DNA from: Anaerolineae bacterium
GTDB lineage: Bacteria > Chloroflexota > Anaerolineae > Anaerolineales > E44-bin32
DNA: 64,000 nt
Assembly (NCBI GenBank): GCA_030605795.1
Contig: JAUWHR010000010.1
Span: 818-64,817 of the forward strand
Direction of reading: 5' to 3'
Of this stretch, positions 2,944-64,000 are shown in pieces (positions within the stretch are counted from its first letter, which is position 1; each line of letters starts with the position of its first letter). Under the pieces are notes generated by a model. It saw only the letters and a program-made list of their open reading frames with translations. It did no database searches and was not told the DNA's origin. A program made the translations under genes and the position numbers.

Positions 2944-4059
2944 TCATGGCGATGCTCCATCTGACAGAGAAGATGAGGCCGAAGGGCCGAAGGCGCTGGT
3001 TTCGGTGAAAATCAGGTCTCGAAGCCGGCGAATTTGGTCCGGCACTGGACGAAGCACCTTGGCGCCATCCGGCCGGGTGTTGAAACCAATCATGTTGGGG
3101 GGGGCAATAACCCCCTTCCGAATATTTTCACCTGGCACCTTCACCGCCAACAATGCAAGAGAGATCATCTGTTCCAAAGATAAGTTGGTTCTCACCCCTG
3201 ATGACAATTCCTGGTAGAGAGCCGGCGCCCTAGAGATGAGTATGGGGAGCATGTCAAGGCTGGCAACGCGTTCCAAAACTGCTAATAACACTTGCTGCTG
3301 CCGGTCTGCGCGTCCGAAGTCGTCACCGGCGCCTTTCCGCACGCGCGCATAAGCCAGCGTGTCAGGACCGTCCAGGTGATGAAGCCCAGGTTCAAGCCAA
3401 CGTTGATGCCCGCCGATCGCTGAGATCACGATCCGCTGTTTGACCTCCACATCGACACCGCCGAGTTCGTCAATCATCCGTTCAAAGGTTTGGAAATCTA
3501 TCACCGCGAAGTACTGGATCGGCACACCAAGCAGACCCTCCACCGTCTTGATTGCCAGATCAGGGCCCCCACCAGGTAGTCGGTAAGCCTCCCCAAACAT
3601 ATAGGCAGTGTTGATGCGATTGAAATTGAATCCCGGTATCTCGACCCACAGGTCACGTGGAATGGAAATCATCCCTGCCTGCATCGTTATTGGGTCAATA
3701 GTCACGAGCATCATGCTGTCGCTTCGCGGTGCACCCGCGCCTGCTTCCCAGTCTCGATAGTCAATCCCCAGGACCAGAAGAGTCACCCTAGCCTTCCCAT
3801 CCCAGGGCTGCGGCAATTCTAGAAGTTGCACCATGGTTGGGGTCGTACCGGGTAGTGGGGTGGTGGAGAGCCCCTGATCGACGACCTGGAAAGGATTCAG
3901 CCCGACACCGGTGTAGCCAACGGTGAAATCTTGCACTAGCTGGAAGATCACAATCCCTACTAGAAGAGTGCTCAAGCCGAAAGCCAGCGCCAAGGCGCGC
4001 AAGACCCAGGTGTAGCAAGAGATATTACCTAAACGCCTCTTATCTAGAGTTGATCGCAT
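2944..4059 (-). CDS. LytR-CpsA-Psr (LCP) family cell-wall glycopolymer ligase
   Basis: N-terminal TM anchor followed by LLVLGIDYR...RSDSMMLVTIDP...ISIPRDLWVEIPG, which is typical of the LCP domain. ATG at 4057-4059. Confidence 0.85.
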   Translation of the reverse strand: MRSTLDKRRLGNISCYTWVLRALALAFGLSTLLVGIVIFQLVQDFTVGYTGVGLNPFQVVDQGLSTTPLPGTTPTMVQLLELPQPWDGKARVTLLVLGIDYRDWEAGAGAPRSDSMMLVTIDPITMQAGMISIPRDLWVEIPGFNFNRINTAYMFGEAYRLPGGGPDLAIKTVEGLLGVPIQYFAVIDFQTFERMIDELGGVDVEVKQRIVISAIGGHQRWLEPGLHHLDGPDTLAYARVRKGAGDDFGRADRQQQVLLAVLERVASLDMLPILISRAPALYQELSSGVRTNLSLEQMISLALLAVKVPGENIRKGVIAPPNMIGFNTRPDGAKVLRPVPDQIRRLRDLIFTETSAFGPSASSSLSDGASP

Positions 4060-4771: not shown

Positions 4772-6415
4772 CTATGACAAAACTGGCCCCGCCTCAACCA
4801 CTTCTGGTGGGCAGTCCGAGGCAAACTTTTTAAAGTTATCAATAAAACGCGCCGCTAATTGTCGATACTTGCTCATGTATTTCTCACGACTGGGCCAGGA
4901 GGATAATGGATCAAGCATTTCAGAAGGTACACCCTCACATGACAGCGGGATTTCAAATCCGAAGATTGGGTCGGTGGTGAACTCTTTTCCTAATAACGAC
5001 CCAGTCAAAGCGGCGTTAAGTATGGTGCGGGTATAGCCTATGCTAATCCGCTTACCCACGCCGTAAGGTCCCCCTACCCAACCGGTGTTCAACAGCCAGC
5101 AATTCACCCCATAGCGTTCAATCTTACGCCTGAGTAAATCAGCGTAATGAGACGGATAGTGCACCATGAATGGCGCGCCAAAGCAGGTGCTGAAGGTGAT
5201 TTCTGGTTCCTCCCCCAACCCCACCTCGGTACCGCCCACCTTGGCGGTGTATCCAGAGATAAATTGGTAGAGCGCTTGGTTCGGCGTGAGACGAGCGATG
5301 GGGGGCAATACGCCGGAAGCATCGCATGTGAGGAAGATGATGTTCTTCGGATGCCCGGCCATCTTTTCCTGAACCGCGTTTTCAATGTAATCCAAAGGAT
5401 AGGAGGCACGCGTATTCTTTGTTATCTCATCGTCATCCAAATCGATCAGGCGGGTAACCGGGTCGTAGATCACGTTTTCGAGAACGGTCCCAAAGCGTTG
5501 TGTGCAGGCATATATCTGCGGCTCGGCCGAGGGGGATAACTTGATGACCTTGGCATAGCACCCACCCTCAAAGTTGAAAATGCCCCGATCGCTCCAACCA
5601 TGCTCATCGTCCCCAATCAGCTTGCGTTTAGGATCAGCGGAGAGAGTGGTCTTGCCCGTCCCAGACAGACCGAAGAAGAGGGCAACATCTCCCTCATTCC
5701 CTACGTTTGCAGAACAGTGCATGGGCATGACGCCCTCCAACGGCATCAGGAAGTTCATTACGGTGAAAATCGACTTCTTAATTTCGCCGCCATAGGCCGA
5801 GACGCCGATGATGCACAGCTTCTGCTCGAAATTGATCGTGATGAACGTGTCAGTTCGTGTCCCGTCGATCGGCTGGAAGGCCTTAAAAGAAGGCACGCAG
5901 AGAACGGTGAATTGCGGCACATGTTGACGATACTCCTCCGTGCTTTTCGGTAGCAGGAACATATTGCGGGATAACAAGCTGTGCCAGGCATACTCGGTGA
6001 TGACCCTCACCGGCATGCGAAATTCCGGATCCGCACCAACATAGCAATCCTGCACAAACAGATCCCGTCCCTGGACAAAACCCTGCAGGCGGCTATATAG
6101 TTCGTCGAACTTCTCTGAAGCATAGGGACGATTGTACTCCCCCCACCAGATGTGGTTCTCAGTTGTCGCCTCGCGGACAATGAATTTATCATTCGGCGCT
6201 CGAGCAGTATGCTTACCAGAGGTGACGACTACTGGACCAAGGTGGGTGATTTTGCCTTCCCCGCGGAAGGTGATTTCCTCATACAGAGCCTCGGTCGGAA
6301 GGTTCCAATAAACGATATTTAAATTGGTCAGACCGTGGTTCTCCAGACCATAGTCACTCCTCAAGGCATTCGCTTCCGATTGGGCGGGGGTCTTGATGTT
6401 TAATAGGTTGTTCAT
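4772..6415 (-). CDS. pckA: Phosphoenolpyruvate carboxykinase (ATP)
   Basis: Collinear with ATP-dependent PEPCK. Kinase-1a loop FFGLSGTGKTTLS plus GDDEHGW and NTGWVGG motifs. The track ORF starts at TTG 6421; I prefer ATG 6415 (MNNLLN...). Confidence 0.95.
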   Translation of the reverse strand: MNNLLNIKTPAQSEANALRSDYGLENHGLTNLNIVYWNLPTEALYEEITFRGEGKITHLGPVVVTSGKHTARAPNDKFIVREATTENHIWWGEYNRPYASEKFDELYSRLQGFVQGRDLFVQDCYVGADPEFRMPVRVITEYAWHSLLSRNMFLLPKSTEEYRQHVPQFTVLCVPSFKAFQPIDGTRTDTFITINFEQKLCIIGVSAYGGEIKKSIFTVMNFLMPLEGVMPMHCSANVGNEGDVALFFGLSGTGKTTLSADPKRKLIGDDEHGWSDRGIFNFEGGCYAKVIKLSPSAEPQIYACTQRFGTVLENVIYDPVTRLIDLDDDEITKNTRASYPLDYIENAVQEKMAGHPKNIIFLTCDASGVLPPIARLTPNQALYQFISGYTAKVGGTEVGLGEEPEITFSTCFGAPFMVHYPSHYADLLRRKIERYGVNCWLLNTGWVGGPYGVGKRISIGYTRTILNAALTGSLLGKEFTTDPIFGFEIPLSCEGVPSEMLDPLSSWPSREKYMSKYRQLAARFIDNFKKFASDCPPEVVEAGPVLS

Positions 6416-6417
6416 AA

Positions 6418-7629
6418 TCAATCCCTTAATATCTTCCGGTCGCCAATATATATTTCGTTAGGCGACCCAGGATCCAAAGCCCATTTTATGCGTTCGATCC
6501 CCTTAGTGATGTCATTCACCGACCCCGCATAGCTCAACCTCAGGTGACCTTCCATCCCAAAGGCGACTCCGGGAACGGTAACCACCAAAGCCTTTTCCAA
6601 TAAGAACCTAGATAATTCGATCGAGTCATTGCTGTAAGCACGGAAGTCTGGCAGACAGTAAAAAGTACCAGACGGTCTAGTTACTCGTATGCCGTTGAAG
6701 GCGATTAACTCCTGCATCATCACATCGCGATTATTTTGCATCGTCAATCTCAGGTTCTCAATCACGCTCTGCACACCGGTCAGCGCACCCTCAGCTGCTG
6801 CCTGGGAGATCACCGAGGCGTTGGAGGTGGTTTGTGATTGGATATTTGTCATCACCTCCACTAGCTTCCTGGGTGCGACAGCCCATCCGATTCGAAATCC
6901 TGTCATCCCATAGACCTTGGAGACGCCATTAACCACAATTAATTTGCTATTCTCGAGGTCTTTGTCAGTGTACTTGTAGGCAATAGGGGCACGTTGGCCG
7001 TCAAAAACCAACGTATGGTAGATGTCATCCAGGATCAGGTAGATACCCTTCCGCTCACAGAACTCAACAATCTCAGCGATAAACTCCTCCGAATAGATGA
7101 CCCCCGAGGGATTGTTTGGGCTATTGACAATGATCGCTTTGGTGTAGGAGGTAACCACCCGCTCGATATCTTCTAATCTTGGGTGGAAGGTGCCATCCTC
7201 AGGCGTAACGATAACTGGTATGCCGTAGACCATCTTGACCATCTCTGGGTAACTGACCCAATATGGCGCCAGGAGGATGACCTCATCCTGCGGGTTGACA
7301 GTCGTAAAAAGCGCGTTGTAGATGCATTGCTTGGCGCCGGTTGAGATAATGATGTTCTCCGGCGCTACGAGCCTGTCGTAATGCTCTTCCACGAAGTGGA
7401 CGATCGCTTTCTTCAGCGACGGTAAACCATCAGTTGGAGTGTACTTCACATCGCCAGTATGCAACTTCGCCGCCGAACCCAGGATAGCCGCGATAGGAGC
7501 ACGATTCTTGGGCTCACCAATGCCAAGGTGTATAACAGGCTCACCCTTTTGGCGCAGGATTCTGGCTTCTTCGTTGAGCCTCAGGGTCGGCGACTCTTTG
7601 ATCTCCCTCGCTAGTTGACTCACGCTCAT
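6418..7629 (-). CDS. Class I/II pyridoxal-phosphate aminotransferase (aspartate aminotransferase-like)
   Basis: 403 aa. Carries SPNNPSG, the PLP-lysine context NGVSKVYGMTGFRIGW, and a C-terminal RLSYA motif. Its stop overlaps the pckA start region. Confidence 0.9.
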   Translation of the reverse strand: MSVSQLAREIKESPTLRLNEEARILRQKGEPVIHLGIGEPKNRAPIAAILGSAAKLHTGDVKYTPTDGLPSLKKAIVHFVEEHYDRLVAPENIIISTGAKQCIYNALFTTVNPQDEVILLAPYWVSYPEMVKMVYGIPVIVTPEDGTFHPRLEDIERVVTSYTKAIIVNSPNNPSGVIYSEEFIAEIVEFCERKGIYLILDDIYHTLVFDGQRAPIAYKYTDKDLENSKLIVVNGVSKVYGMTGFRIGWAVAPRKLVEVMTNIQSQTTSNASVISQAAAEGALTGVQSVIENLRLTMQNNRDVMMQELIAFNGIRVTRPSGTFYCLPDFRAYSNDSIELSRFLLEKALVVTVPGVAFGMEGHLRLSYAGSVNDITKGIERIKWALDPGSPNEIYIGDRKILRD

Positions 7630-7809
7630 TTGTAGAACTCCCTCAACCCTTCTGACACTTTACAATTCCATATAGCCTACCTCTTTAGGGTCACCTTGGG
7701 TTGACATAGAATTATTATAATGATTTGTTGGCCAATCTAACAGAGATGATTTTCACATCTTTAACATGGGGGATATCGTTAGCTAGGCCGATCTTCGTTC
7801 CAATTACCT

Positions 7810-9390
7810 TTAAACCTTCTTCTTACCATATCCTCCACCACCGGGTGTAAAGATGCTGATTACATCACCTGCTTGGATCTCAAGGGTGACCTTACCCGGC
7901 AACGTTCGTTCAATGCCCTTTCTGATCACCGCGTTGCTACCGCACTGTCCAGGATTTCCTCCCGCCAGTCCATATGGGCGAAAACGGCGTCGGTCAGAGA
8001 GTATGGTTACCTGCGCTTCGGTCAGCAACTTAATCTGTCGACAAATACCGTTGCCTCCATTGAAACAACCCTCCCCACCAGAACCCCGACGAATCTCATA
8101 GCGCTGCACACGAAAGGGGTAAGTATACTCAAGCGCTTCGATTGGCGTATTCATCGTATTAGTCATATGAGAGTGGATTGCATCAGCTCCATCCGCTCCA
8201 GGGCATGCGCCCATTCCTCCGCCTATCGTCTCATAATAAGCGTAGGATCGTTTACGCTCCGGATCCCACCCTCCGATCGTCAGATTGTTCATCGTTCCTT
8301 GACTTGCCGCTGGTACCTGATCGGGACATGCTTGAGCGAGAGCTCCCAACAGCACATCCACGATGCGTTGGGAAGTCTCCACGTTGCCCCCTGCGACTGC
8401 AGCCGGCGGTCGAGCGTTGACCAAGGTTCCCTCAGGAGCGACTATCTCAATCGGCACCAGGCAACCAGCGTTAGAGGGAACATCTAGTCCAATTAATGTC
8501 CGAAATACATATTGCGTGGCGGAGAGAGTTATGGCGTAAACAGCATTAATACAGCCCTTACGCTGGGGAGAGGTGCCCGAGAAATCGACAATGGCCTCGT
8601 CTCCCTGGATCGTGATGGCTACCGCGATGTCAGCTGGTTCTGGACTCAATCCGTCGTCGTCCATGCGGTCAATGAATCGATACGTGCCGTTGGGAAGGTC
8701 ACCAATCAGACGACGAGTCATACGCTCAGCATACTCAAGCAGCCCACTTATGTATTTTTCTACTTCCTGGCGACCATAGCGATTCACGAGCTCCCCCATC
8801 CGCTCAACCCCCTTATTGTTAGCAGCTATCTGCGCCCGCAGATCTCCCGCCCTCTCTTCCGGCGTACGCACGTTGGCAAGCAACAGGTCCATAACCCCTT
8901 GGTTAACCACCCCACCCTGAACCATCTTGAGCGGTGGGATGATGATACCCTCCTGATAAAGTTCGTTGGAGAGGGGCATAGAGCCGGGTGTCATACCTCC
9001 GACATCCGAGTGATGAGCGCGGTTTGCTGCAAAGCCAAATAGTTCCTGCACCCCGCCCTCGCCAATGAAAATCGGGCTTATCAAAGTGATATCAGGAAGG
9101 TGCGTACCCCCATGATATGGATCATTCAGGATGACAACATCTCCTGGCGAAAAGTCATATGCGCGGATACCTTCCTTGACCGACAACGGCATAGAGCCCA
9201 GGTGGACTGGGATATGAGCAGCCTGAGCGAACATTCGTCCCTCGATGTCAAACAGGGCGCAAGAGTAATCACGCCGCTCTTTAATGTTGGGTGAGTATCC
9301 GGTACGGCGCAACACCATGCCCATCTCCTCGGCAACGGAGGAGAATAGATGTTTGAAGACTTCGAGACGAACTGGGTCGAATGTGGTCAT
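7810..9390 (-). CDS. Hydantoinase B / 5-oxoprolinase family, B subunit
   Basis: 526 aa, N-terminus DPVRLEVFKHLF..AEEMG, full-length resemblance to HyuB/OplaH B-type proteins. Paired with an A-type gene upstream. Confidence 0.9.
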   Translation of the reverse strand: MTTFDPVRLEVFKHLFSSVAEEMGMVLRRTGYSPNIKERRDYSCALFDIEGRMFAQAAHIPVHLGSMPLSVKEGIRAYDFSPGDVVILNDPYHGGTHLPDITLISPIFIGEGGVQELFGFAANRAHHSDVGGMTPGSMPLSNELYQEGIIIPPLKMVQGGVVNQGVMDLLLANVRTPEERAGDLRAQIAANNKGVERMGELVNRYGRQEVEKYISGLLEYAERMTRRLIGDLPNGTYRFIDRMDDDGLSPEPADIAVAITIQGDEAIVDFSGTSPQRKGCINAVYAITLSATQYVFRTLIGLDVPSNAGCLVPIEIVAPEGTLVNARPPAAVAGGNVETSQRIVDVLLGALAQACPDQVPAASQGTMNNLTIGGWDPERKRSYAYYETIGGGMGACPGADGADAIHSHMTNTMNTPIEALEYTYPFRVQRYEIRRGSGGEGCFNGGNGICRQIKLLTEAQVTILSDRRRFRPYGLAGGNPGQCGSNAVIRKGIERTLPGKVTLEIQAGDVISIFTPGGGGYGKKKV

Positions 9391-9457: not shown

Positions 9458-10006
9458 CTACATATCTGGAGAACGTACATATTGCAGCAGTTCCTCCAAC
9501 TCATTTGGACTAATATACCTTTGTGCTTCAAGATCGAATGAATTTCGCTTGTATTTAGCAACATACTCACCGAGGCTACGCTCACGCTGCTGAGGTACCA
9601 TAGTTAATAACCAGCGGATAATCTGTGTTAATAGACAAAGGCGATGTGCGACGACCTCCTCTCCTAACACATGACGACTTTTATAATACCAATCACGGCT
9701 CTCACGAGCTGACCCCAGCGTGTATTCATAGAAAAGTGCCCTTCCCTTACCCATACCACGAGAATAGCCTTCAGCAATAGTCGCACTGATAGATCCCAGA
9801 GCTCGGTATAGTTGATCAGTTAAACCATGTATCCTATTATCCTGCATCATTTTTGTAATATCGTACCAACCCAGTTCTGTAACAAACAACGCCAAACGGT
9901 AGTCTTCAACCTTCCACAAAGAATCACCAGTTATCACCTCAGGAACAGTCTTCACCCATTCCTCATAATTCCCTTCACCCCTCCCTTCATGCCTCACTCT
10001 CCACAT
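9458..10006 (-). CDS. Four-helix-bundle protein (23S rRNA intervening-sequence protein / Avd-like family)
   Basis: Core motif LYRALGSISATIAEGYSRG....ALFYEYTLGSARESRDWY matches the family signature (RA..SI..NIAEG ... GS..E). The start is uncertain: ATG 10006 overlaps the hyuA end by 20 nt, and GTG 9955 has GAGGA upstream. The sequence is visibly more AT-rich than the flanking hyu genes. Confidence 0.75.
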   Translation of the reverse strand: MWRVRHEGRGEGNYEEWVKTVPEVITGDSLWKVEDYRLALFVTELGWYDITKMMQDNRIHGLTDQLYRALGSISATIAEGYSRGMGKGRALFYEYTLGSARESRDWYYKSRHVLGEEVVAHRLCLLTQIIRWLLTMVPQQRERSLGEYVAKYKRNSFDLEAQRYISPNELEELLQYVRSPDM

Positions 10007-11990
10007 CAACAACCAAGTTAAAATACTCATCAACATTGGCCCGACTCCCCTCAGGCAGGTAGACCGTCGTGTCCTTGTAGACGATCATTGCTGGACCAGC
10101 GAGGGCCTGGCCTGGTTGAAGGTATTCACCCTTGTAAAAGGGTTCATGGGCGAATCCTCCATCACCTTGCACAAAAGCACGACGACCGATGAAGGCTTGG
10201 GACGGATCCTCTGCTCCCAACGGAGAGCGTGGGAGAGCCGGTCGCAAGACACCTCCGACAGCACGGAGCCTGATATTAACGATCTCTACTGGCGACCCAG
10301 GCGCGCTGTGCCCATATGTCCGCTGATGCAGAGTGTGGAAAACGTGTACAAAATCTGGTGTTAGTGGCAAAGTGAGCTCATACCCCTGACCCACATAGCG
10401 CATGTCGAGTTCTCGATGCAGTGTGATTCGATCCACAGATACACCCTCTCGCTGTACATCCCGGTAACCTCGATCTGCTAGTGGATCGAGCAGCTGTTCT
10501 AACTGTTCGAACGGTGTATCCCCTGGCATCATCACTGTTTGAACGTAATCCTTAATCACGTCAGCGGTTAGCATTCCAAAGGCCGACAGAGTCGATGCGC
10601 ATGGTGGAATCAGCACATTCGGCATCCCCAAGGCTCGGGCAAGGTCAACTGCATGCAACCCACCCGCGCCACCGAAAGAGACAAGTGTGAAATCCCATGG
10701 ATCATGACCTCGCTCCACGGAGATCACTCGCAACGCGCGTTCCATATGCGCATTAACGATCTGGATCACACCCAATGCAGCGGTTTGAGCCCCAGTCAGG
10801 TCCGACCGAGGTGTCAAACCCGCATTTCGAGCCAACGACTCCAGTGTTTCCTCAGCGGCTTGAATGTCAAGCGCCATTCGACCACCGAGAAAGTAGTCAG
10901 GCGCAAGACGACCAAGAAGCAGATTGGCATCGGTCACTGTGGGCTCCATACCGCCTCTACCGTAGCAGGCAGGTCCAGGATCAGCGCCAGCGCTCCGAGG
11001 TCCGACGCGCAACCCACCACCGGCGTCGACATAGGCGATGGAGCCACCTCCAGAACCAATTGTGTGAATATCGATCACCGGGACGCGAATTGGTAAGCCA
11101 TCGATCTCTGCCTCGTTCGTGACCCGGATCGCTCCGTCGCAAAGGGAGACATCGGTCGAGGTGCCTCCCATATCGAAACTGATTATCTGTTCGAAGCCAG
11201 CTGCCTGCGCAACGTGAAATGCACCCACGACACCTCCAGCAGGTCCCGATAATATGGACCTCACCGCACCTGCCCGGGCTTCAGCGGCGCGAATACTCCC
11301 CCCATTGGATTGCATGATATGAAAGTCAGCGACCTTCAATCCTTCTTCGAGTTGTCGTAAATAGCGATCAACTATAGGCGATACATAGGCGTTGATGACG
11401 GTTGTGCTGGTTCGCTCGTATTCCCGGAACTCAGGTAGTACTTCACATGAGGGCGAGACGGTGAAGCCGGCCTGGCGCAAAGCCCGGGTAATAATCTGTT
11501 CATGATCAGGATGCATGAATGAGAACAACAAGCATACTGCAATAGACTCGACATCCATAATCCGCAGCTTGTCGATCAATATGGATATCTCATCTTTATT
11601 TAATGGCGTAAGTACTCGACCACGGTGATCGACGCGCTCTGTTATCTCCAGACGCCCTTCATCCGGCACCAATGGCTGAGGTCGGGTATTACAGAAATCA
11701 TACAAGTCACGGCGGACCTGTCTACCGATAGCGAGCACATCCCGAAAACCACGGGTAGAAATGAGTGCGGTGCGTGCACCTTTCCTCTCCAGGATCGCGT
11801 TAGTGGCTACTGTTGAACCGTGGACAATATATGGTTGAGTCGCTGGATGCATCCTCTCCATCTCAGTGAGCAAAGCATGAGCGGGATCTTGGGGTGTCGA
11901 TAGGAATTTATCAGTTTTAAATATGCCTGACTGCTCATCGAATGTCACAAAATCAGTAAAAGTGCCGCCAATATCGATGCCTATGCGCAT
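9987..11990 (-). CDS. Hydantoinase A / 5-oxoprolinase family, A subunit
   Basis: 667 aa. Starts MRIGIDIGGTFTDFV (ASKHA-fold ATPase start typical of HyuA) and carries SFDMGGTSTDV. Confidence 0.9.
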   Translation of the reverse strand: MRIGIDIGGTFTDFVTFDEQSGIFKTDKFLSTPQDPAHALLTEMERMHPATQPYIVHGSTVATNAILERKGARTALISTRGFRDVLAIGRQVRRDLYDFCNTRPQPLVPDEGRLEITERVDHRGRVLTPLNKDEISILIDKLRIMDVESIAVCLLFSFMHPDHEQIITRALRQAGFTVSPSCEVLPEFREYERTSTTVINAYVSPIVDRYLRQLEEGLKVADFHIMQSNGGSIRAAEARAGAVRSILSGPAGGVVGAFHVAQAAGFEQIISFDMGGTSTDVSLCDGAIRVTNEAEIDGLPIRVPVIDIHTIGSGGGSIAYVDAGGGLRVGPRSAGADPGPACYGRGGMEPTVTDANLLLGRLAPDYFLGGRMALDIQAAEETLESLARNAGLTPRSDLTGAQTAALGVIQIVNAHMERALRVISVERGHDPWDFTLVSFGGAGGLHAVDLARALGMPNVLIPPCASTLSAFGMLTADVIKDYVQTVMMPGDTPFEQLEQLLDPLADRGYRDVQREGVSVDRITLHRELDMRYVGQGYELTLPLTPDFVHVFHTLHQRTYGHSAPGSPVEIVNIRLRAVGGVLRPALPRSPLGAEDPSQAFIGRRAFVQGDGGFAHEPFYKGEYLQPGQALAGPAMIVYKDTTVYLPEGSRANVDEYFNLVVDVESEA

Positions 11991-15102: not shown

Positions 15103-15175
15103 GCCAGCGTAGCTCAGTCGGCAGAGCAATCGCTTCGTAAGCGATGGGTCGGGGGTTCGAGTCCCCCCGCTGGCT
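15103..15175 (+). tRNA. tRNA-Thr (anticodon CGU)
   Basis: Hand-folded cloverleaf. Acceptor GCCAGCG/CGCTGGC, D arm GCTC-AGTCGGC-AGAGC, anticodon stem ATCGC/GCGAT with loop TTCGTAA, T arm GGGGG-TTCGAGT-CCCCC. No encoded CCA. Confidence 0.9.
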
Positions 15176-38053: not shown

Positions 38054-38107
38054 CATGGATATCCTCCATGAATAATTTGAATTTGGGTTTATTGCCACTC
38101 CTCATGG

Positions 38108-38313
38108 CTTTGTCCGCATCGTTGCCGACGCGGCGTTTACCACAAGGTTCCTGTAAGGGGAAGGAACTGGCGGTGGCACACCTGGAGGGCATCCGCTGAT
38201 CTTTCGATATTCCCGGTCCAGCGGTTGGGAGCCGCCGGCTTAGTCCGGTTAACCCTGCCTTGCGGTAGGGAACCCTCGTCCTCGTCACCCCGAGACCCTC
38301 GGGGTCATGCGCT
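38108..38313 (-). ncRNA. glmS ribozyme (GlcN6P-dependent self-cleaving leader)
   Basis: The minus strand reads A|GCGC-aug-ACCCCGAGGGUCUCGGGGU-GACGAGGA...AUCGAAAGAUCAGCGGAUGCCCUCCAGGUGUGCCA...GUAAACGCCGCGUCGGCAACGAUGCGGACAAAG, directly 5' of glmS. The conserved blocks AGCGC, GACGAGG, AUCGAA..GCGGAUGCC..C and GUGUGC match the glmS ribozyme core as I recall it. Confidence 0.8.
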
Positions 38314-38565
38314 AATCCTTCCTTGAGCTGTCGGTTATCGTCCCAGTCACCTCCATTACTTCTCCAGAACGGTCATTATATCCCAATTTCCATACTTAGC
38401 TTAATTTGTACTCCTCCATATTATATGGGTAATTGCATTTTCTCTACATTGACCTCAATCACCGCGGAGCAGGATACAATACCCACATTTCTTACCCAAT
38501 TCTCCAGCAGGTCAGGCTCCCACGCCTGACCATCGGCGGCATGCCCACTCCGCTTCGCCGAAGGT

Positions 38566-58119: not shown

Positions 58120-58412
58120 CCAAGATAAGCATCCCTTCAATAAAAAAAAAGCGTTTCGGCGTAGAGACCGGGAGCGGAAGCTGTCGTTTATGGCTACTTT
58201 TCTAGGATGCTGCCCGGGGGGGTCATGAGGGTATTAGACGGAGTTCTGTGATAGAGGTAGGATACCACGCCGCCCGCAAGAAGGGTTAGCGCCCCACTTG
58301 TCATGCCATTTGGGCTGATAATACGGGAATTTACCCCCTTTTTCAATCACTTTTCAGAGTTTTCCTATCACTGACAATATTTCTGCTGACTTTTTACACA
58401 GCCTGGCGAGAC

Positions 58413-58419
58413 GTTAGGC
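58413..58419 (-). other. Orphan attC-like inverse core (GCCTAAC) at the distal end of the cassette array
   Basis: The minus strand reads gcgatGCCTAACgtctcgccaggctg, 48 nt after the stop of the last cassette ORF. There is no GTT (no AAC on the plus strand) anywhere between 58120 and 58412, so no matching core site exists. Confidence 0.45.
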
Positions 58420-58467
58420 ATCGCACTCTACAACATGGAACCATAACCAATGCTAAAGGAAAACCCA

Positions 58468-59160
58468 CTATGCTGAAGCTGGCGCTCTTTCGATTTCAAT
58501 TTCTTTAATTCGATCGTATAACAACTCGAGAATAGAACTTTCAATCGAGACTAATACCCTTGTTTCGTCTCCGACATCGTTGCTTGAGTAGTCAAACAGG
58601 ATACCATCGAAAGATTGTATTATCCCGGCGGTGTACCCTGTAACGAGTGTCTTATTATGCTTCTTTCCAATGTCCCAACGCCTTTGTGAAAAGATGCTTA
58701 GTATGTCCTCCTCAGACATTTCTTTATTCGCGATCTCAACAAGAATTTTCGTTATAGTTGGATCAATTCTGGAGATAACTTCAGTGATTTCATGAGACTT
58801 TGGAAGATCTTCTACACTATGTTGTTCTTGATCAGCTTCAACTTGAGAGAATAGCCTAGATGAATCCATCTTTCCCTTCAAAGAAAATGGGCCTATGGAC
58901 GCTGTTAACTCATCCACGAGTGAAAGAAATCCAGAACTTGATGGAAGAATCTTTCGGATAAATAGGAGTACAACAATCGCTCCAGCGATTATCGGCTGCG
59001 ATATTAATTCCCAGAGTGAAGCTATACCAGAGAAGATAATCTCATCTAATGCAACAATATAAGGCGTATTTGTTGCTATGGAGTGAAGCAGGGCGAGTAA
59101 TGCAAGGATACCTATGCCAAATATCAGGAAGACAATTGTCACTTTTCTCATCCGCTCCAT
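58468..59160 (-). CDS. Cassette ORF 5: two-TM membrane-anchored protein (hypothetical)
   Basis: Started at ATG 59160 (MERMRKVTIV...). The longer track ORF would run through the attC-like site. Two N-terminal TM helices, then a ~150-aa soluble domain. No family recognised. Confidence 0.6.
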   Translation of the reverse strand: MERMRKVTIVFLIFGIGILALLALLHSIATNTPYIVALDEIIFSGIASLWELISQPIIAGAIVVLLFIRKILPSSSGFLSLVDELTASIGPFSLKGKMDSSRLFSQVEADQEQHSVEDLPKSHEITEVISRIDPTITKILVEIANKEMSEEDILSIFSQRRWDIGKKHNKTLVTGYTAGIIQSFDGILFDYSSNDVGDETRVLVSIESSILELLYDRIKEIEIERAPASA

Positions 59161-59217
59161 CCACCCTTTCTTAATCAAGACAGAACAATGATAATGAGGC
59201 GTGCGATACAATGCGAT

Positions 59218-59416
59218 GCCTAAAGATTTCGAGCTGAGGCGCCGGGGCACAGTCCATCACCGGCAATCCCAGCATCCCCATCATACAACTTAGTTTGCAA
59301 ATCACGCCGCACCGTTCGTCCAATCGTCCATCCAGCCGTTCGTCCCGCGAGCAGAGCGAGACGGGGCTTGACTGGGCTTGACTGGATCCCCGGTCGCCTC
59401 CAACGAGTGGTTATGC
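59218..59416 (-). other. attC-like site 4 (199 nt)
   Basis: Minus strand: GCATAAC-cactcgttggaggcgaccgggga ... ggcgcctcagctcgaaatc-TTTAGGC. Its 5' arm is near-identical to attC-like site 2. Its centre carries repeat D2 (59314-59389). Confidence 0.6.
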
Positions 59417-59431
59417 GCCCGAAAAAGTCGA

Positions 59432-60211
59432 CTAAGCAGGGCGGGTTCCACCTGCGATGATCTCATCAATTACTTTAGGTTTCCAAACGATTCCTAGCTG
59501 AGCCTCAATCTCGTCTTCTGCTAGGATTCGACCAGAATAAACTCCAAGGAAAACCCTATCACTTCCAAACCAATCTTCGGGGGACATTTTTCCTGGATCA
59601 TTCTGATAGTAACCAGTATATTGAGCGATCACCGGAGAACCAGACATTCCCTCTCGAGTTGCACTGTCAATTAACAACTTCGGAGCACCATCGATATCAA
59701 TATCTGGTTCGGAAGCAATGCTTCCTCTTTTCCAGATTGGAAAGCGACCGGAGCCAGTTATGCCCTTTGGAAAGCCTATTATGAATACGTCTTGAGATAT
59801 TTTTACTCGGAAAGAGCCAAAATCAACTTCGTTGAGTGGAAAAAATCTGTGATCACTTCCTATAGTCATAGGAAGAGCAGCAACATCTACTTGTGGCCCA
59901 AGGGTCGGATGTTGTAACCATCTCGGCCTTCCCTGATCGTCATACAAGGGAACTTCAATAGAAGACCAAGACGATAATCCGGAAGAATCCAGCATCCACA
60001 CCAAGAGCCTATCGGGCACACTCCCATTCTCATCAATTGGTTGCTTAGTTAAGGGATTAAGGCCAGAAACAACATGATTGTTGGTAATAAGGAAATTGTT
60101 ATCGCCAGACCGCCAAGGAAAACCCGTGGCAATCGCAAAAACACTTTGCCCAAAATATGCCTCTAAGTAAATGGATGTAAGTGAAAGACGATCAGGTGTA
60201 ATTCTTTTCAT
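59432..60211 (-). CDS. Cassette ORF 4: trypsin-fold (S1/Trypsin_2-like) serine protease without signal peptide
   Basis: Catalytic triad contexts FLITNNHVVSG (His), VDVAALPM (Asp) and REGMSGSPVIAQ (Ser). No N-terminal hydrophobic segment. ATG 60211 preferred over TTG 60217. Confidence 0.8.
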   Translation of the reverse strand: MKRITPDRLSLTSIYLEAYFGQSVFAIATGFPWRSGDNNFLITNNHVVSGLNPLTKQPIDENGSVPDRLLVWMLDSSGLSSWSSIEVPLYDDQGRPRWLQHPTLGPQVDVAALPMTIGSDHRFFPLNEVDFGSFRVKISQDVFIIGFPKGITGSGRFPIWKRGSIASEPDIDIDGAPKLLIDSATREGMSGSPVIAQYTGYYQNDPGKMSPEDWFGSDRVFLGVYSGRILAEDEIEAQLGIVWKPKVIDEIIAGGTRPA

Positions 60212-60233
60212 TCTCAATTATTGTCAGTAGGGC

Positions 60234-60355
60234 GCATAACATCTTGAGTTCAGCCGCCCCACTCAATACTCTACTTGCTTCTCAAGATTCCCATTCCGGG
60301 TTCTTCATTTGCAAATCGCCCAGCCTGCGGGGTCGGCTGCGGAGAATTGTTAGGC
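60234..60355 (-). other. attC-like site 3 (122 nt)
   Basis: Minus strand: GCCTAAC-aattctccgcagccgacccc ... ggggcggctgaactcaagat-GTTATGC. The inner stem gcagccgacccc / ggggcggctg has a one-sided unpaired base. Confidence 0.65.
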
Positions 60356-60364
60356 GGAGCGTTC

Positions 60365-61138
60365 CTATTCTTCATTATTTTCTTGGGTGAATAGGGAATA
60401 TAGTCTTTCTAAATCTTGGTCACTTAGAGACCCGAATTTTGCAAATTGACGTATGTTATCCGGATCAAAAATATATCTATCTCTTGTATTCAACTCATCA
60501 ACTACATTTAAGTCTCGTATAAAGACTGCTCTGAAAATCAAATAGTGCGATAGAAGAGAAGTCATAATTCCATAAGCAGCGTCTTCAATTCTCTCTAGAT
60601 CTGACATGACGAGCTTTACAATCATTCTATTGGCGTATGTCTTCAATGGTAGGACTATCAAGTCAGGGGATGCATGAGAATAACGACTCATTAGTCCCCA
60701 GAAGCGTCCGAAAAAATCTTCACCCGATTCCTCTCTTTCATTCTTAGCCAATTTAAGGACTCGATCAAGCTTGACATCACCTTTTACAAATGCATCGATT
60801 AATCCAGTATGTCTAACCAAGTATTGGGTACATTGAGCAAGCTCAGCTAGAATGCGAGTAAGTGCAAAACCCTCGAGGGGGTAACCTCGGATCGTTTTAT
60901 CCATTGCGACCTTTGATATTGAAAAGGCACGTGCAGTTGAAATAAAGGCAAATAACTGAGGATTGTTTGGAACATTCTTGACAGGGACGGATTCACCGGA
61001 ATTATGAAATGCTATAAGCAATGTTTCCTGTATAAATCGAAAATAACCAAGAAGTCCGGAAAGCCTTTCTCTCACAAGTTTTTCTACACTATCTTCAAGG
61101 TCATCAATGTTTGAAATTGATACTAAATCATCATTCAT
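60365..61138 (-). CDS. Cassette ORF 3: hypothetical soluble protein (257 aa)
   Basis: Clean ATG-to-stop ORF with no TM segments and predicted helical character. I do not recognise a family with confidence. Confidence 0.65.
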   Translation of the reverse strand: MNDDLVSISNIDDLEDSVEKLVRERLSGLLGYFRFIQETLLIAFHNSGESVPVKNVPNNPQLFAFISTARAFSISKVAMDKTIRGYPLEGFALTRILAELAQCTQYLVRHTGLIDAFVKGDVKLDRVLKLAKNEREESGEDFFGRFWGLMSRYSHASPDLIVLPLKTYANRMIVKLVMSDLERIEDAAYGIMTSLLSHYLIFRAVFIRDLNVVDELNTRDRYIFDPDNIRQFAKFGSLSDQDLERLYSLFTQENNEE

Positions 61139-61169
61139 ATCAACTTATCTACTAGATATTTGGAGCTCC

Positions 61170-61293
61170 GCCTAACGGTCGTGAGCTGAGCGGCCGTGGT
61201 TCAAACCATATATTGCTCGCCGAGCGTCCCTATCATATAACCTGGCTTAGATTTCACCCAGCATCCCCGGTCGCCTCCTACGAGAGGCTAGGC
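61170..61293 (-). other. attC-like site 2 (124 nt)
   Basis: Minus strand: GCCTAGC-ctctcgtaggaggcgaccgggga ... ggccgctcagctcacgacc-GTTAGGC. Starts 10 nt after the ORF stop and ends 31 nt before the next ATG. Confidence 0.65.
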
Positions 61294-61303
61294 AGCCAAT
61301 TAA

Positions 61304-61831
61304 TTATGGAGCACGCTCTGAGCTCTGCACGTCATTAACGGATCTGGACATCTCGGTTACCACCACCCGAAAGGCCTCTTCCTGACTTCGAATTTGCAGA
61401 TCATTTATTGTGCCCGAGGTCTTGTTTGGTATCTCTGTGACAGGATAGCAAGTTCCAAGACCACTCGCTTGTATGTGATTCCAGAACTCAGGCGGTGGGC
61501 TGACTGACCTACCTGGCCAATCTCCATGCTGGACGAAGCAACCACTGGGGAGAGGCTCATCGCCGATAAATGCGAGACCAAGTGGATGTTGGTCAATCTC
61601 GCGTTTCTTGTCATCAACACGATTTATATTGGCCATATAGTAGGCCACTCCGCCAGGCCCGCCCGACGCGAGTATCAAGACACTGTCCGACTTGTCCAGC
61701 AAGACCAAGGGGAACGTGGGCATAAGTTCTCCCAATTGGCTCGGTTCAATAACAGTGAAGTTACCTTGCTGGCAGGTTTCATTCCACTTCTCTCTGTCAA
61801 TTTGCGATGTATCGAACCAGTTGAATTTCAT
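61304..61831 (-). CDS. Cassette ORF 2: hypothetical protein (175 aa)
   Basis: ATG-to-stop ORF, soluble. No family recognised. Confidence 0.6.
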   Translation of the reverse strand: MKFNWFDTSQIDREKWNETCQQGNFTVIEPSQLGELMPTFPLVLLDKSDSVLILASGGPGGVAYYMANINRVDDKKREIDQHPLGLAFIGDEPLPSGCFVQHGDWPGRSVSPPPEFWNHIQASGLGTCYPVTEIPNKTSGTINDLQIRSQEEAFRVVVTEMSRSVNDVQSSERAP

Positions 61832-61891
61832 TTATATATCCCTAGTCTGAACACCGAAAAGTTTCCGGAACGCGTCTCGATCAAGTGGCTG

Positions 61892-61950
61892 ACCTAACGG
61901 ATGAGCTCAGCGGCGCGTACCCCAGCGTCCGCTCCAGCGAAATGCTAGCG
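61892..61950 (-). other. attC-like site 1 (59 nt)
   Basis: Minus strand: cGCTAGC-atttc-GCTGGAGCGGACGC-tggggtac-GCGCCGCTGAGC-tcatcc-GTTAGGT. Imperfect stem with extra bases on the 5' arm only. Classic ~60-nt size. Confidence 0.65.
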
Positions 61951-62019
61951 AGCAAACATTACATAATTTAAATCTCAATCCATAGGCTTTGGGTTCTCGA
62001 GTTGATACATCTTTCGAAT

Positions 62020-64000
62020 TTAGCTGATCCTGTGCTTCTCATAATCTGTTGCAAGGAAGGACATGACCTGCCTGATTATGACTTCGAAATGGCGTTTTGC
62101 ATCGGTCAAATCTTGGGAATCACAGCCAGGTTTGGGCTTCCTAGAAGTCTCATCAACCACGTGAGGAAGATCAGACTGCTTCCTTAATTCATGAAGAGCA
62201 CTTGCCGCCGCTTTCAATTCTGGGCTTACTCGTCCCATAAAATCAATTTGGGATGTGTGTCCCCTATGGCCAGATTCTAATTTTGATTCTGGGAATTCGC
62301 GGACAAGAGCAAGATCAATCTCATCGGCAAGGATATCGGAAATACCATCAAGCCGGGTAATGAAGGCATCTGGATTATCTTTATCCTTCTGGATTTTCAC
62401 TAGTTGGACACGGATTAGCGCTAAGGTGTTAGGAATATCAAAAAGATCATCGAACGTGTGATCACCAAGTAAATCAGCACGGATGATGTTGGCTTGGAGG
62501 GCCTCATTTAATAATTTGAGGAGTGTAATATCGGGGGAGCCCCTGAGCTGATCTGATGCAACCTCAAGTGCACTTCTAACCTGTGGATTCCGTTCAACAG
62601 GCTCATCGTTTAGCCTCTTTTCGATCAATGAAAGTCCATCCGCTGGCATGGCACATTTGCCTATGGTGGATGCAACGTTAGCGCGAAGTTCCGCATCATC
62701 ACCAAGAGAATAAAGAAGTGATTCCAGTTTCTCACAACAGTCACTCCGACCAAATGCCTCCAGTGTTTGTAGCCATGTTGGGATGTGAGAGCGTGGATCT
62801 GCTTCAAGATGCCTGGAAAGAAGGGTCGACAGGGCTTCTTTAGCTAGTATTCTTGTTTCGTCACTAGGGTCACCAGACTCGCGTTCCTGCAAACGGTGCA
62901 CGGTTTCAACTGTAGGGGTTGCGCTTCTAGATAATGCCTGTATCGCAGATTGGACGACGGCATTTCGATCATCCTCAAGAATTGACCACAGTCGTTCTTC
63001 AACAGTCGGTGTCCCGATTGCCCCGAGAGCCTCAGCAGCTGCTACCCGGATATCAGGAGATGTGGATGTCAATTCTCTAGCAATTGTCTCTTCATCATCC
63101 TCACTTCCATGATTGCCCAAATGAACAATTAACCGGGCTCGATCCTTAGTTGTGAGTGAATACTCGCTGTTAGCCAAAATAGAGCGACTCACCTCGGAGG
63201 CTTTCTGCAAATCTTCAGCAGACAGAAATGACCAGACATGCGAATTCCATTCTGAAATAAGGTAAGAGCTAGCAGCAGCAACGGCAGAATCTGTTGTGCT
63301 TTCCTCTAGGATCGACCGAGATGTTTTCCATTTCCCTTTGGCAGTTCCGGCTCGAATGAGATGTGCATATAGAGCTTGTTGATTTCCAGAAAAATTAGCA
63401 ATCGCTGCCAACATAGATTTGGCAGAGGAATCCTTGCTGTCGATGAATACCCGAATAATCTTAGTCTTTCTCTCTCCGGGAGCATTGTCTATCGTGCGAG
63501 CGAGAAATCGCGCTAGCTCTTCTGCAGATGCAGGAAATGATTTGTTGTTGCCTATTAGCAATTGAATCCAGGTGCTTAGGCTCTGATCATCATCCAAAAG
63601 GCTTTCACAAGTTTGTAGGTAGCGAAAGGCTTTTGCTCTAATTGCATCATTATCCGAGCCTAGTAATGGAAGCAACTCAATCGTGAGACTATCGACAATC
63701 TGTTTGCCAACGAAGCTTATTAAGGAGTGGATGCGCTCGGAATTGTGGTGGGATGATTCTGGATTCTCAATAATGGAACGTGCGACAGATTTAGAGAGAA
63801 CAATTTCTTGGCCCCCAATTACTTCTTTTAATGCTTCTAGTGCACGTGACCAAACAGCTTCTTTGGGTAGTCCAATAATTTTGAACCAGGCATCCGCCGA
63901 TAGTTCTAGCGGGATGTGTGAAAGAATTGTCTCGGTATGTTCACAGATACTTTCAAGTTGATCTGGTTGCTCGCGATTTGATTGATCAACTACACGCTCT
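62020..64000 (-). CDS. Cassette ORF 1: HEAT/ARM-repeat protein, 5'-partial (runs off the window)
   Basis: Repeated ~30-aa helical units such as DIRVAAAEALGAIGTPTVEERLWSILEDDRNAVVQSAIQALSRSATP. I checked codon by codon that the minus-strand frame stays open from the track's TTG start (63675) to position 63999 with no stop, so the protein is at least 660 aa and its real start lies beyond 64000. Confidence 0.75.
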   Translation of the reverse strand, partial: ERVVDQSNREQPDQLESICEHTETILSHIPLELSADAWFKIIGLPKEAVWSRALEALKEVIGGQEIVLSKSVARSIIENPESSHHNSERIHSLISFVGKQIVDSLTIELLPLLGSDNDAIRAKAFRYLQTCESLLDDDQSLSTWIQLLIGNNKSFPASAEELARFLARTIDNAPGERKTKIIRVFIDSKDSSAKSMLAAIANFSGNQQALYAHLIRAGTAKGKWKTSRSILEESTTDSAVAAASSYLISEWNSHVWSFLSAEDLQKASEVSRSILANSEYSLTTKDRARLIVHLGNHGSEDDEETIARELTSTSPDIRVAAAEALGAIGTPTVEERLWSILEDDRNAVVQSAIQALSRSATPTVETVHRLQERESGDPSDETRILAKEALSTLLSRHLEADPRSHIPTWLQTLEAFGRSDCCEKLESLLYSLGDDAELRANVASTIGKCAMPADGLSLIEKRLNDEPVERNPQVRSALEVASDQLRGSPDITLLKLLNEALQANIIRADLLGDHTFDDLFDIPNTLALIRVQLVKIQKDKDNPDAFITRLDGISDILADEIDLALVREFPESKLESGHRGHTSQIDFMGRVSPELKAAASALHELRKQSDLPHVVDETSRKPKPGCDSQDLTDAKRHFEVIIRQVMSFLATDYEKHRIS

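Follow-up and report, generated by a model that had tools for sequence, protein, structure and literature searches.

A probable integron gene-cassette array with a lineage-specific attC family in an uncultured Anaerolineae bacterium (Chloroflexota)

Sedentary chromosomal integrons, such as the superintegron of Vibrio cholerae with its V. cholerae repeats (VCR) of ~120 nt and the integron of Aliivibrio fischeri, are long arrays of mostly orphan, promoterless single-gene cassettes that all lie in one orientation. Here we describe a stretch of 64,000 nt (hereafter the window) from contig JAUWHR010000010.1 of the uncultured Anaerolineae bacterium GCA_030605795.1 (Chloroflexota), the minus strand of which, from 58386 to 64000 and beyond, is on sequence grounds very probably an integron gene-cassette array residing in the chromosome. 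Integrons have already been reported in Chloroflexi (PMC4889954), and the 11 taxa covered by published attC models do not include this phylum (PMC8352920). The literature that we searched on integrons, Anaerolineae and gene cassettes held no description of an Anaerolineales-specific attC family.

The locus shares several properties with the V. cholerae and A. fischeri integrons: (i) a lineage-specific attC site of ~120-124 nt with RYYYAAC...GTTRRRY cores; (ii) an integron integrase (IntI) encoded divergently from the array, as seen in the related locus L269; and (iii) a large size, with ~45 sites in 39 kb of a related metagenome-assembled genome (MAG). The IntI of A. fischeri is 42% identical to that of the present lineage. 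On the other hand, the host belongs to the Chloroflexota (Anaerolineae) and not to the Gammaproteobacteria, the attC sites are unrelated in sequence, and the window shows only five cassettes, without intI and with a truncated last site. A second class for comparison is the cluster of attC sites lacking an integron integrase (CALIN), defined in IntegronFinder as two or more attC sites that share a strand, are spaced by less than 4 kb and have no intI (Cury et al. 2016, PMC4889954). The window resembles a CALIN in that its four attC sites lie on the same strand and the flank available shows no intI, but this upstream flank is cut less than 2.5 kb from the first attC, short of the 4-kb criterion. 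At the level of the single site, the canonical attCaadA7 (Nivina et al. 2016, PMC5027507) has the same R box, spacer, L box, bulged base in the '' arm of the bottom strand and variable terminal structure. Its extrahelical bases have been named G16 and T23 (PMC5027507), and the unpaired positions found here lie at 14-16 and 23 from the outer R'' end, the numbering origins of the two systems possibly being different. Unlike in attCaadA7, the base near 16 is part of a 3/4-nt internal loop instead of being a one-sided bulged G, and the long central part has a sequence that is itself conserved across the family.

The features of the array, all on the minus strand, are given below with sites in reading direction; R1 is the covariance model described further on.

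62020-64000, off the window edge, minus strand: ORF (open reading frame) of cassette 1, HEAT-repeat protein (Pfam HEAT_2, 1.7e-14)
61950 to 61892, minus strand: attC site 1, the HEAT cassette's own, CGCTAGC...GTTAGGT, 59 nt, short central part (R1 match 16.9 bits, E 0.0013)
61176-61897, minus strand: cassette 2, from the TT of site 1 R' to the G of site 2 R' (ORF 61304-61831)
61293 to 61170, minus strand: attC site 2, GCCTAGC...GTTAGGC, 124 nt (R1 match 70.8 bits, E 9e-24, full length)
60240-61175, minus strand: cassette 3 (ORF 60365-61138, 257 aa, no known family)
60355 to 60234, minus strand: attC site 3, GCCTAAC...GTTATGC, 122 nt (R1 match 58.1 bits, E 5e-19)
59224-60239, minus strand: cassette 4 (ORF 59432-60211, 259 aa, trypsin-like serine protease)
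59416 to 59218, minus strand: attC site 4, GCATAAC...TTTAGGC, 199 nt (R1 matches at 59218-59337, 46.7 bits, and 59340-59416, 11.9 bits)
~58386-59223, minus strand: cassette 5 (ORF 58468-59160, 230 aa, hydrophobic N-terminus, no known family)
58419 to 58386, minus strand: truncated terminal site, GCCTAAC GTC TCGCCAGGCTGTGTAAAAAGTCAG, first ~34 nt, 5' arm only

A preliminary description of this DNA had reported five minus-strand ORFs, each followed by an imperfect palindrome bounded by attC-like heptamers, and the co-oriented ORFs, heptamers and coordinates are all present in the sequence as claimed. The spacings that it gave were confirmed too: from stop codon to site the distances are 69, 10, 9, 15 and 48 nt (within the claimed 9-69 nt), and from site to next ATG they are 60, 31, 22 and 57 nt (within 22-60 nt). 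The window sites fit RYYYAAC/GTTRRRY at 5-7 of 7 positions, the deviations being the TAGC R'' of sites 1 and 2 and the TTT of site 4. The variable length of the site centres and the AT-richness of the region, both noted earlier, are reflected in site lengths of 59, 124, 122 and 199 nt in the window (91-152 nt in relatives) and in a G+C content of 0.45 for 58386-64000 against 0.519 for the rest of the window. Two points had to be amended. The GCCTAAC at 58419-58413, described as an orphan, does exist, though not as a lone heptamer: it opens the first ~34 nt of a truncated site that has neither 3' arm nor R' and ends 267 nt from a conserved ubiA-like gene. This terminal site shares 95.8% identity (24 nt) with the 5' part of the "type-2" sites of locus L115 (see below) and gave no R1 match in the covariance scan of the window. 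Site 4 is one site, as had been proposed, to which we add that a ~75-nt insertion with internal duplications in its central part splits the model match; L145, L179 and L150 contain the insertion in shorter versions. The arms of site 4 (GAGGCG-A-CCGGGG / CCCCGG-CGCCTC) are intact, and its R' starts with T, not G.

Among the five cassette products, Pfam recognises only the HEAT repeats of the edge ORF and the trypsin-like domain of ORF 4 (Trypsin_2, 6.6e-10); the other three, including the 175-aa product of cassette 2, which likewise belongs to no known family, are orphans. The cassette 4 protein was also matched by the PADLOC model PDC-S45 (7.6e-21), thus resembling a candidate phage-defence protein. 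No homologues of cassettes 2-5 were found among ~295 loci from relatives and metagenomes, and an identical copy of cassette 3 in the same context is present on a 1056-bp Logan contig from SRR14876844.

The first line of evidence for the integron reading comes from the cores of neighbouring sites. In integrons the crossover takes place at G|TT, so that the bases following the G belong to the downstream cassette and should complement the R'' of that cassette. Among 45 pairs of neighbouring sites in relatives, full complementarity between the outer triplet of R' and the R'' of the following site was seen in 31 cases, compared to 10 of 45 for the R'' of its own site and 8 of 45 in the reverse control; permutations gave a mean of 6.9 (standard deviation 2.3), and none out of 10,000 reached 31. 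The same tendency is visible within the window, where the reverse complement of R' agrees with the next R'' at 25 of 28 positions and with its own R'' at 21 of 28, and in L269 the R'/R'' chain is unbroken (10/10) and includes the attI junction. The co-variation of the TTRRRY hexamer with the inverse core of the next site, on which the preliminary description had largely relied, was therefore upheld in the window and in its relatives, and the pattern is the one expected if crossover occurs at G|TT and TTRRRY travels with the downstream cassette.

The second line of evidence is the recognition of the sites by a model built independently of them. Model R1 was constructed from 103 non-redundant homologous sites (alignment A1), none of which came from the window, and its structure was specified by hand as a 7-bp R box, a 3+4-nt spacer, a 3-bp L box, a 3+4-nt internal loop, a stem of 6 bp, a bulged A and 6 bp, and a central part. 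Run with filters off over the whole 64 kb on both strands, R1 placed sites 2, 3, 4 (3' part) and 1 at the top of its matches (70.8, 58.1, 46.7 and 16.9 bits; E-values 9e-24, 5e-19, 1e-14 and 1e-3). The 5' arm of site 4 (59340-59416) followed with 11.9 bits (E 0.1), and beyond the four sites nothing below E = 0.1 was found on either strand of the window. A test with an attC model had been suggested beforehand, and the family-specific model used here recognised each of the four sites without any further match in the window. Applied to the ubiA neighbourhoods of 80 relatives (1.145 Mb), R1 gave one marginal match, which indicates that the attC family is not a dispersed repeat; scattering of the arm sequences, named in advance as an observation that would speak against an array, was thus seen neither in the other 58 kb of the window nor in the DNA of the relatives. 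The Rfam scans of the window and the related loci, at both gathering and E-value thresholds, returned no attC-type match.

The family consensus is 124 nt long and reads GCCTAAC GTC TCGCWGGAGGCGACCGGGG ...(~72 nt)... CCCCGGCGCCTCAGCTCGAGGCT GTTAGGC, with cores that fit at 7/7 on both sides. Within a site, R'' GCCTAAC pairs with R' GTTAGGC to form the R box. Next come the central spacer, which is unpaired and measures 3 and 4 nt on its two sides, the L box of 3 bp (TCG/CGA), a small loop of asymmetric shape, the stem of 6+6 bp and finally a central part that varies. The stem contains one bulged base, an A on the coding strand and hence a T on the bottom strand, at top-strand position 23, which is present in the family consensus and in all four window sites. 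Extrahelical bases on the '' arm have been reported to be used by integron integrases for the choice of the strand (PMC5027507), and the bulged A (bottom-strand T) would correspond to a base of this kind.

The pairing was assessed in alignment A2, composed of 50 diverse sites, where 87.2% of the cells were paired compared to 74.6% in shuffles, values to be read with the knowledge that A2 was fitted to the model structure and that its pair counts are biased toward it. Compensatory changes on both sides were found for 16 of 22 pairs; the 12-bp stem (helix 3) was 93% paired, with 11 of its 12 pairs covarying. None of 500 shuffles reached any of the observed measures, and when partners were slid by 1-3 columns, pairing dropped to 25-46%. 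The two outermost R-box pairs were the worst paired within a site (19-23 of 49 unpaired), as is predicted by a hybrid R'. Site 3 provides an instructive example, since its stem departs from the consensus and is nevertheless compensated (CAGCCG-A-CCCCGC / GTGGGG-CGGCTG, 12/12 helix-3 pairs). In view of how large the effect is and of examples like this one, we consider the predicted attC stem convincing. RNAalifold applied to A1 returned structure fragments only and no covariation, because the search pattern had made the arms invariant.

Evidence that the units have moved comes from the HEAT cassette. Relatives of the HEAT protein, 93% and 86% identical, are encoded on contigs L116 and L115, and the cassette as a whole is 86-95% identical among the window, L115 and L116. 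The same type of attC follows the gene in each of the three copies (site 1 being homologous to the HEAT-cassette attC of L116 and L115), but the next cassette differs every time, and the upstream flanks of L115 and L116 are wholly different. L115 and L116 become homologous precisely at the G of GTTAGCG and cease to be so 2-3 nt before R'; the cassette starts with TTAGCG, and its own R'' CGCTAAC is a 7/7 complement. When the attC sites of the window and L116 are compared, a G-to-T difference in the 5' arm is accompanied by a compensatory C-to-A difference in the 3' arm. As regards cassette order, which should differ between relatives if this is an integron array, the neighbours of the HEAT cassette are indeed different in the window, L115 and L116.

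The copy of the HEAT gene described here is truncated at its 5' end at ~64432 (window-equivalent), its product (P0001) measuring 801 aa compared to 943 aa (P0002) and 941 aa (P0003) for the others. Logan contig L114, which reaches ~64460 (window-equivalent), has an in-frame stop, and its homology to L115 and L116 begins at its nt 29; the 28 nt upstream (~64433-64460) are unrelated and end in GGTTATAAC. The end of positions 1-28 of L114, CAACTTTCGGTTATAAC, looks like a degenerate attC 3' arm with an R' core, which suggests a deletion or an event at a secondary site.

The attC family is physically linked to integron integrases in relatives. Using TIGR02249 ("integron integrase", cutoff 265 bits) as criterion, a complete integron was identified in L269, on a 302-kb contig. 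Its intI gene (10001-10984, 327 aa, full length, 461.6 bits) carries the ALERKYP insert, at least 12 attC sites lie on the strand opposite to intI from 8375 down to 282, and the attI junction acatG|TTAGCT (~9800) matches the R'' AGCTAAC of the first cassette. L204 contains a partial IntI ORF (221 aa, 281.5 bits) that includes the motif ALERKYP, part of the IntI-specific insert, and is divergent from a cassette terminated by an attC of the same family, and L163 contains an IntI N-terminus likewise divergent from a cassette with this type of site. With the L204 protein as query, IntI proteins 87% identical to it were found in the Anaerolineales MAGs bin40 and N6_298, both of which are relatives of the window organism by their ubiA genes; bin40 also bears this attC family. 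It was this query, too, that led to L269. A motif screen for integrases in the first 80 metagenome loci found none, and clustering of the ORFs across loci did not reveal a recurrent integrase. Two further recombinases were considered and rejected as IntI: the one in L260 is Xer-like, and the one in L197 reaches only 217.7 bits, lacks the IntI insert and is paired with an IS91 transposase. This L197 pair (6100-7835, minus strand) consists of a short tyrosine recombinase and an IS91-family transposase (Y2_Tnp + Zn_Tnp_IS91) that directly follow an attC in cassette orientation, and it is a passenger element and not an integron integrase.

With respect to its distribution, the family occurs in sediment metagenomes and, among genomes, is almost wholly limited to Anaerolineales MAGs. 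A scan of genome contigs with the arm of sites 2 and 4 (TCGTWGG...) yielded one true relative, L105, and 31 chance matches in high-GC genes, the dominant variant of the family being TCGCWGG. A second genome scan with this dominant variant returned 31 tiles, almost all of which come from MAGs of the Anaerolineales; several of these MAGs also have the closest ubiA genes. L105, from a Dehalococcoidia MAG, has three one-gene units with homologous sites and a last site that is again reduced to its 5' arm. That site (~3395-3430, minus strand) reads GGCTAAC GTC TGGCAGGAGGCGACCGGTG and is followed by a type I restriction-modification system. In metagenomes at least 120 contigs carry the family, many with 2-5 sites, mostly from a few Joint Genome Institute (JGI) series, e.g. 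Ga0114922, Ga03074xx and Ga03155xx. One long-read contig, CAVPZJ010000006.1, has ~45 sites, all on one strand, in its first 39.4 kb.

Next to the array in the window lie a ubiA-like and a tlyA-like gene (56.2-58.1 kb), which have their best relatives in Anaerolineaceae/Anaerolineales MAGs (78-80% amino-acid identity). In the closest relatives only tlyA-ubiA is syntenic, and an unrelated plus-strand operon is found downstream of ubiA. Since sites of this kind are lacking within 10 kb of ubiA in all 80 relatives examined, the 5.6-kb stretch can be regarded as an accessory region of low G+C content.

Several points weigh against the integron reading, or at least against a complete and active integron. 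Neither tblastn nor phmmer detected an IntI-like ORF in the 64-kb window, and neither attI nor the cassette promoter Pc was found there. The contig measures 65,512 bp and ends at most 1.5 kb beyond the window, leaving only ~2.5 kb readable upstream of the first attC, and for these reasons a complete integron cannot be demonstrated here. The 3' half of the last site is missing, as is the crossover G of site 4. As to the structure, apart from the bias of the A2 pair counts mentioned above, minimum free energy (MFE) DNA folds of single sites on both strands were not better than shuffles (z -1.4 to +0.8) and mostly failed to recover the arm-to-arm hairpin. The long central parts dominate such folds, and the hairpin therefore rests on covariation and not on energy. 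The bottom-strand folding check advised in the preliminary description thus gave a split result, the conserved bulged T being found and the folding energies offering no support. Its claim of one-sided unpaired bases in the stems holds for a single clean extrahelical base, the bulged A of all four sites; the second unpaired feature turned out to be the 3/4-nt internal loop and not a bulged G. No excess of promoter-like sites was observed in 57.9-64 kb.

The rival explanation that best survives these points is a sub-case of the integron reading, namely that the array is an inactive CALIN remnant, its integrase lost or separated, decaying and no longer mobilised. CALINs are common (PMC4889954), which adds to the appeal of this explanation, as do the absence of intI from the window, the truncated terminal site, the TTTAGGC of site 4, the TAGC R'' of sites 1 and 2, the truncated HEAT gene and the position of the array, abutting a housekeeping gene where relatives have no array. 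On the other hand, sites 2 and 3 have their full length and pair well, related MAGs encode IntI, and in L114 at least one more R'-like core lies upstream of the truncated HEAT gene, from which it follows that the array continues past the contig. Moreover, an integrase encoded elsewhere in a genome can still act on a CALIN (PMC4889954), so that even a CALIN need not be immobile. We regard the inactive remnant as a serious possibility, without favouring it.

A quite different explanation is that the sites are ordinary intergenic palindromes, i.e. repetitive extragenic palindromes or bacterial interspersed mosaic elements (REP/BIME) or terminators, which resemble attC by chance. They are imperfect palindromes located just 3' of stop codons and their single-site fold energies are unremarkable, as would be the case under this explanation. 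However, the outer core bases covary with the neighbouring site and not with their own arm, which is unexpected for a terminator or REP, and cassette homology breaks exactly at G|TT. Furthermore, the sites have no T-run and there is no excess of terminator-like sites; 58 kb of the same genome contains none of them and the 1.145 Mb from relatives only one marginal match, and the family is physically linked to IntI. On account of the cross-cassette covariation, the G|TT break, the lack of T-runs or a terminator excess and the confinement of the sites to arrays, this explanation was excluded, the chance of its being correct being minimal.

Equally improbable, and excluded as well, is the idea that the sites are ends or targets of another element, such as a miniature inverted-repeat transposable element (MITE), an insertion sequence (IS) hairpin of the IS200/IS605 type, IS110/IS1111 or IS91, whose transposase moves the genes: IS110- and IS91-family transposases are indeed found within some of the related arrays, those of IS91 together with a short tyrosine recombinase, but they are sporadic, present in few of ~180 loci, in which their behaviour is that of passengers or insertions. 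The L197 recombinase (217.7 against the 265 cutoff, without IntI insert) is not an IntI, none of these genes is present in the window, and the unit structure, the RYYYAAC/GTTRRRY cores and the linkage to IntI and attI are an exact fit to integrons. The IS110-family transposases (PF02371) inside arrays were seen in L133 (220-1443), L152 (4632-5855) and L162 (1287-2423). Such genes in arrays recall the IS1111-attC group, which targets attC sites.

Returning to the integron reading, which had been proposed from the sequence of the window at the outset, it is supported by the model matches, the lack of scatter, the linkage to IntI in relatives and the unconserved cassette order. Each unit consists of one promoterless ORF plus an attC of the lineage-specific ~124-nt family. 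In the mechanism that we propose, the steps of which are taken from established integron biology, the IntI tyrosine recombinase would bind the folded bottom strands of two attC hairpins and cut at G|TT; attC x attC recombination would excise the cassette as a circle, and the circle would re-insert at attI beside intI, where the Pc promoter would express the cassette. Distal cassettes such as those in the window would then form a mostly silent stock. The visible stretch looks like a distal, partly decayed part of the array in view of the truncated terminal site, the TTT of site 4, the TAGC R'' of sites 1 and 2 and the 5'-truncated HEAT gene. Because its terminal site is truncated, cassette 5 would be fixed and could not be excised, and the loss of the crossover G in the R' of site 4 (TTTAGGC) probably traps cassettes 4 and 5. 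The array may be a CALIN, or else belong to the distal portion of a complete integron. We infer that this genome may still encode IntI and that the window cassettes may still be mobile.

As to its meaning, the analysis shows from sequence only that a stretch of an uncultured Chloroflexota genome can be recognised as an integron cassette stock. The lineage-specific attC families already known are extended by one specific to the Anaerolineales, a modest addition, and for integron biology the result confirms the known picture without changing it. A family-specific model could be used to assign orphan cassettes from sediment metagenomes to their host lineage. Defence-like cassettes comprise PDC-S45 in the window and SIR2_2, HEPN_AbiU2 and HigB-like genes in related arrays. 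Chromosomal integron arrays have been reported to store defence systems (bioRxiv 10.1101/2024.07.02.601686), and the present cassettes, which look like candidate anti-phage genes, would fit that role.

L115 contains a second type of site ("type 2") that flanks cassettes at ~1400-1470, 2738-2866, 3640-3960 and 5770-5897. Its 5' part is CTAAAC ATT CGCCAGGCTGTGTGAAAAGTC and its 3' part is a conserved segment of ~60 nt ending CATAG GTTAGNN; two copies carry an extra common segment of ~270 nt. Type-2 sites keep R''/R'-like cores and fold poorly (z -1.1 to +0.7), and among the ~295 loci they were found only in L115 and at the truncated end of the window array (58386-58419, minus strand). It is conceivable, albeit speculative and in our estimate rather improbable, that Anaerolineales of anoxic sediments possess very large sedentary integrons based on one homogeneous, "VCR-like" attC of ~124 nt, and that type 2, which keeps the R''/R' cores and flanks cassettes but has almost no hairpin potential, is a variant recombined without the canonical stem.

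Some minor observations concern the sites and contigs of relatives. At the distal end of the array of CAVPZJ010000006.1 (L262, 32-40 kb) there are several repeated internal attC fragments without either R box, which cover model positions 17-106; three have identical scores, suggesting duplicated decayed units. In L146, L181 and L193 a hairpin insertion of ~27 nt, CCCCACATAGAACGTGGGGCTTCGC, is located inside the attC 3' arm between GGCGCCTC and AGCTCGAGG. Two contigs labelled as "Methanosarcinales archaeon" (L010) and "Klebsiella sp." (L052) carry a ubiA of the Chloroflexota type, 68% and 47% identical to that of the window, respectively, and ranked among matches from Anaerolineae and Roseiflexaceae; they are probably mis-binned MAG contigs. 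Finally, and unrelated to the array, the window contains a tRNA gene at 15103-15175 (plus strand) and a glmS ribozyme at 38091-38324 (minus strand), the latter detected with 42.3 bits against a gathering threshold of 37.

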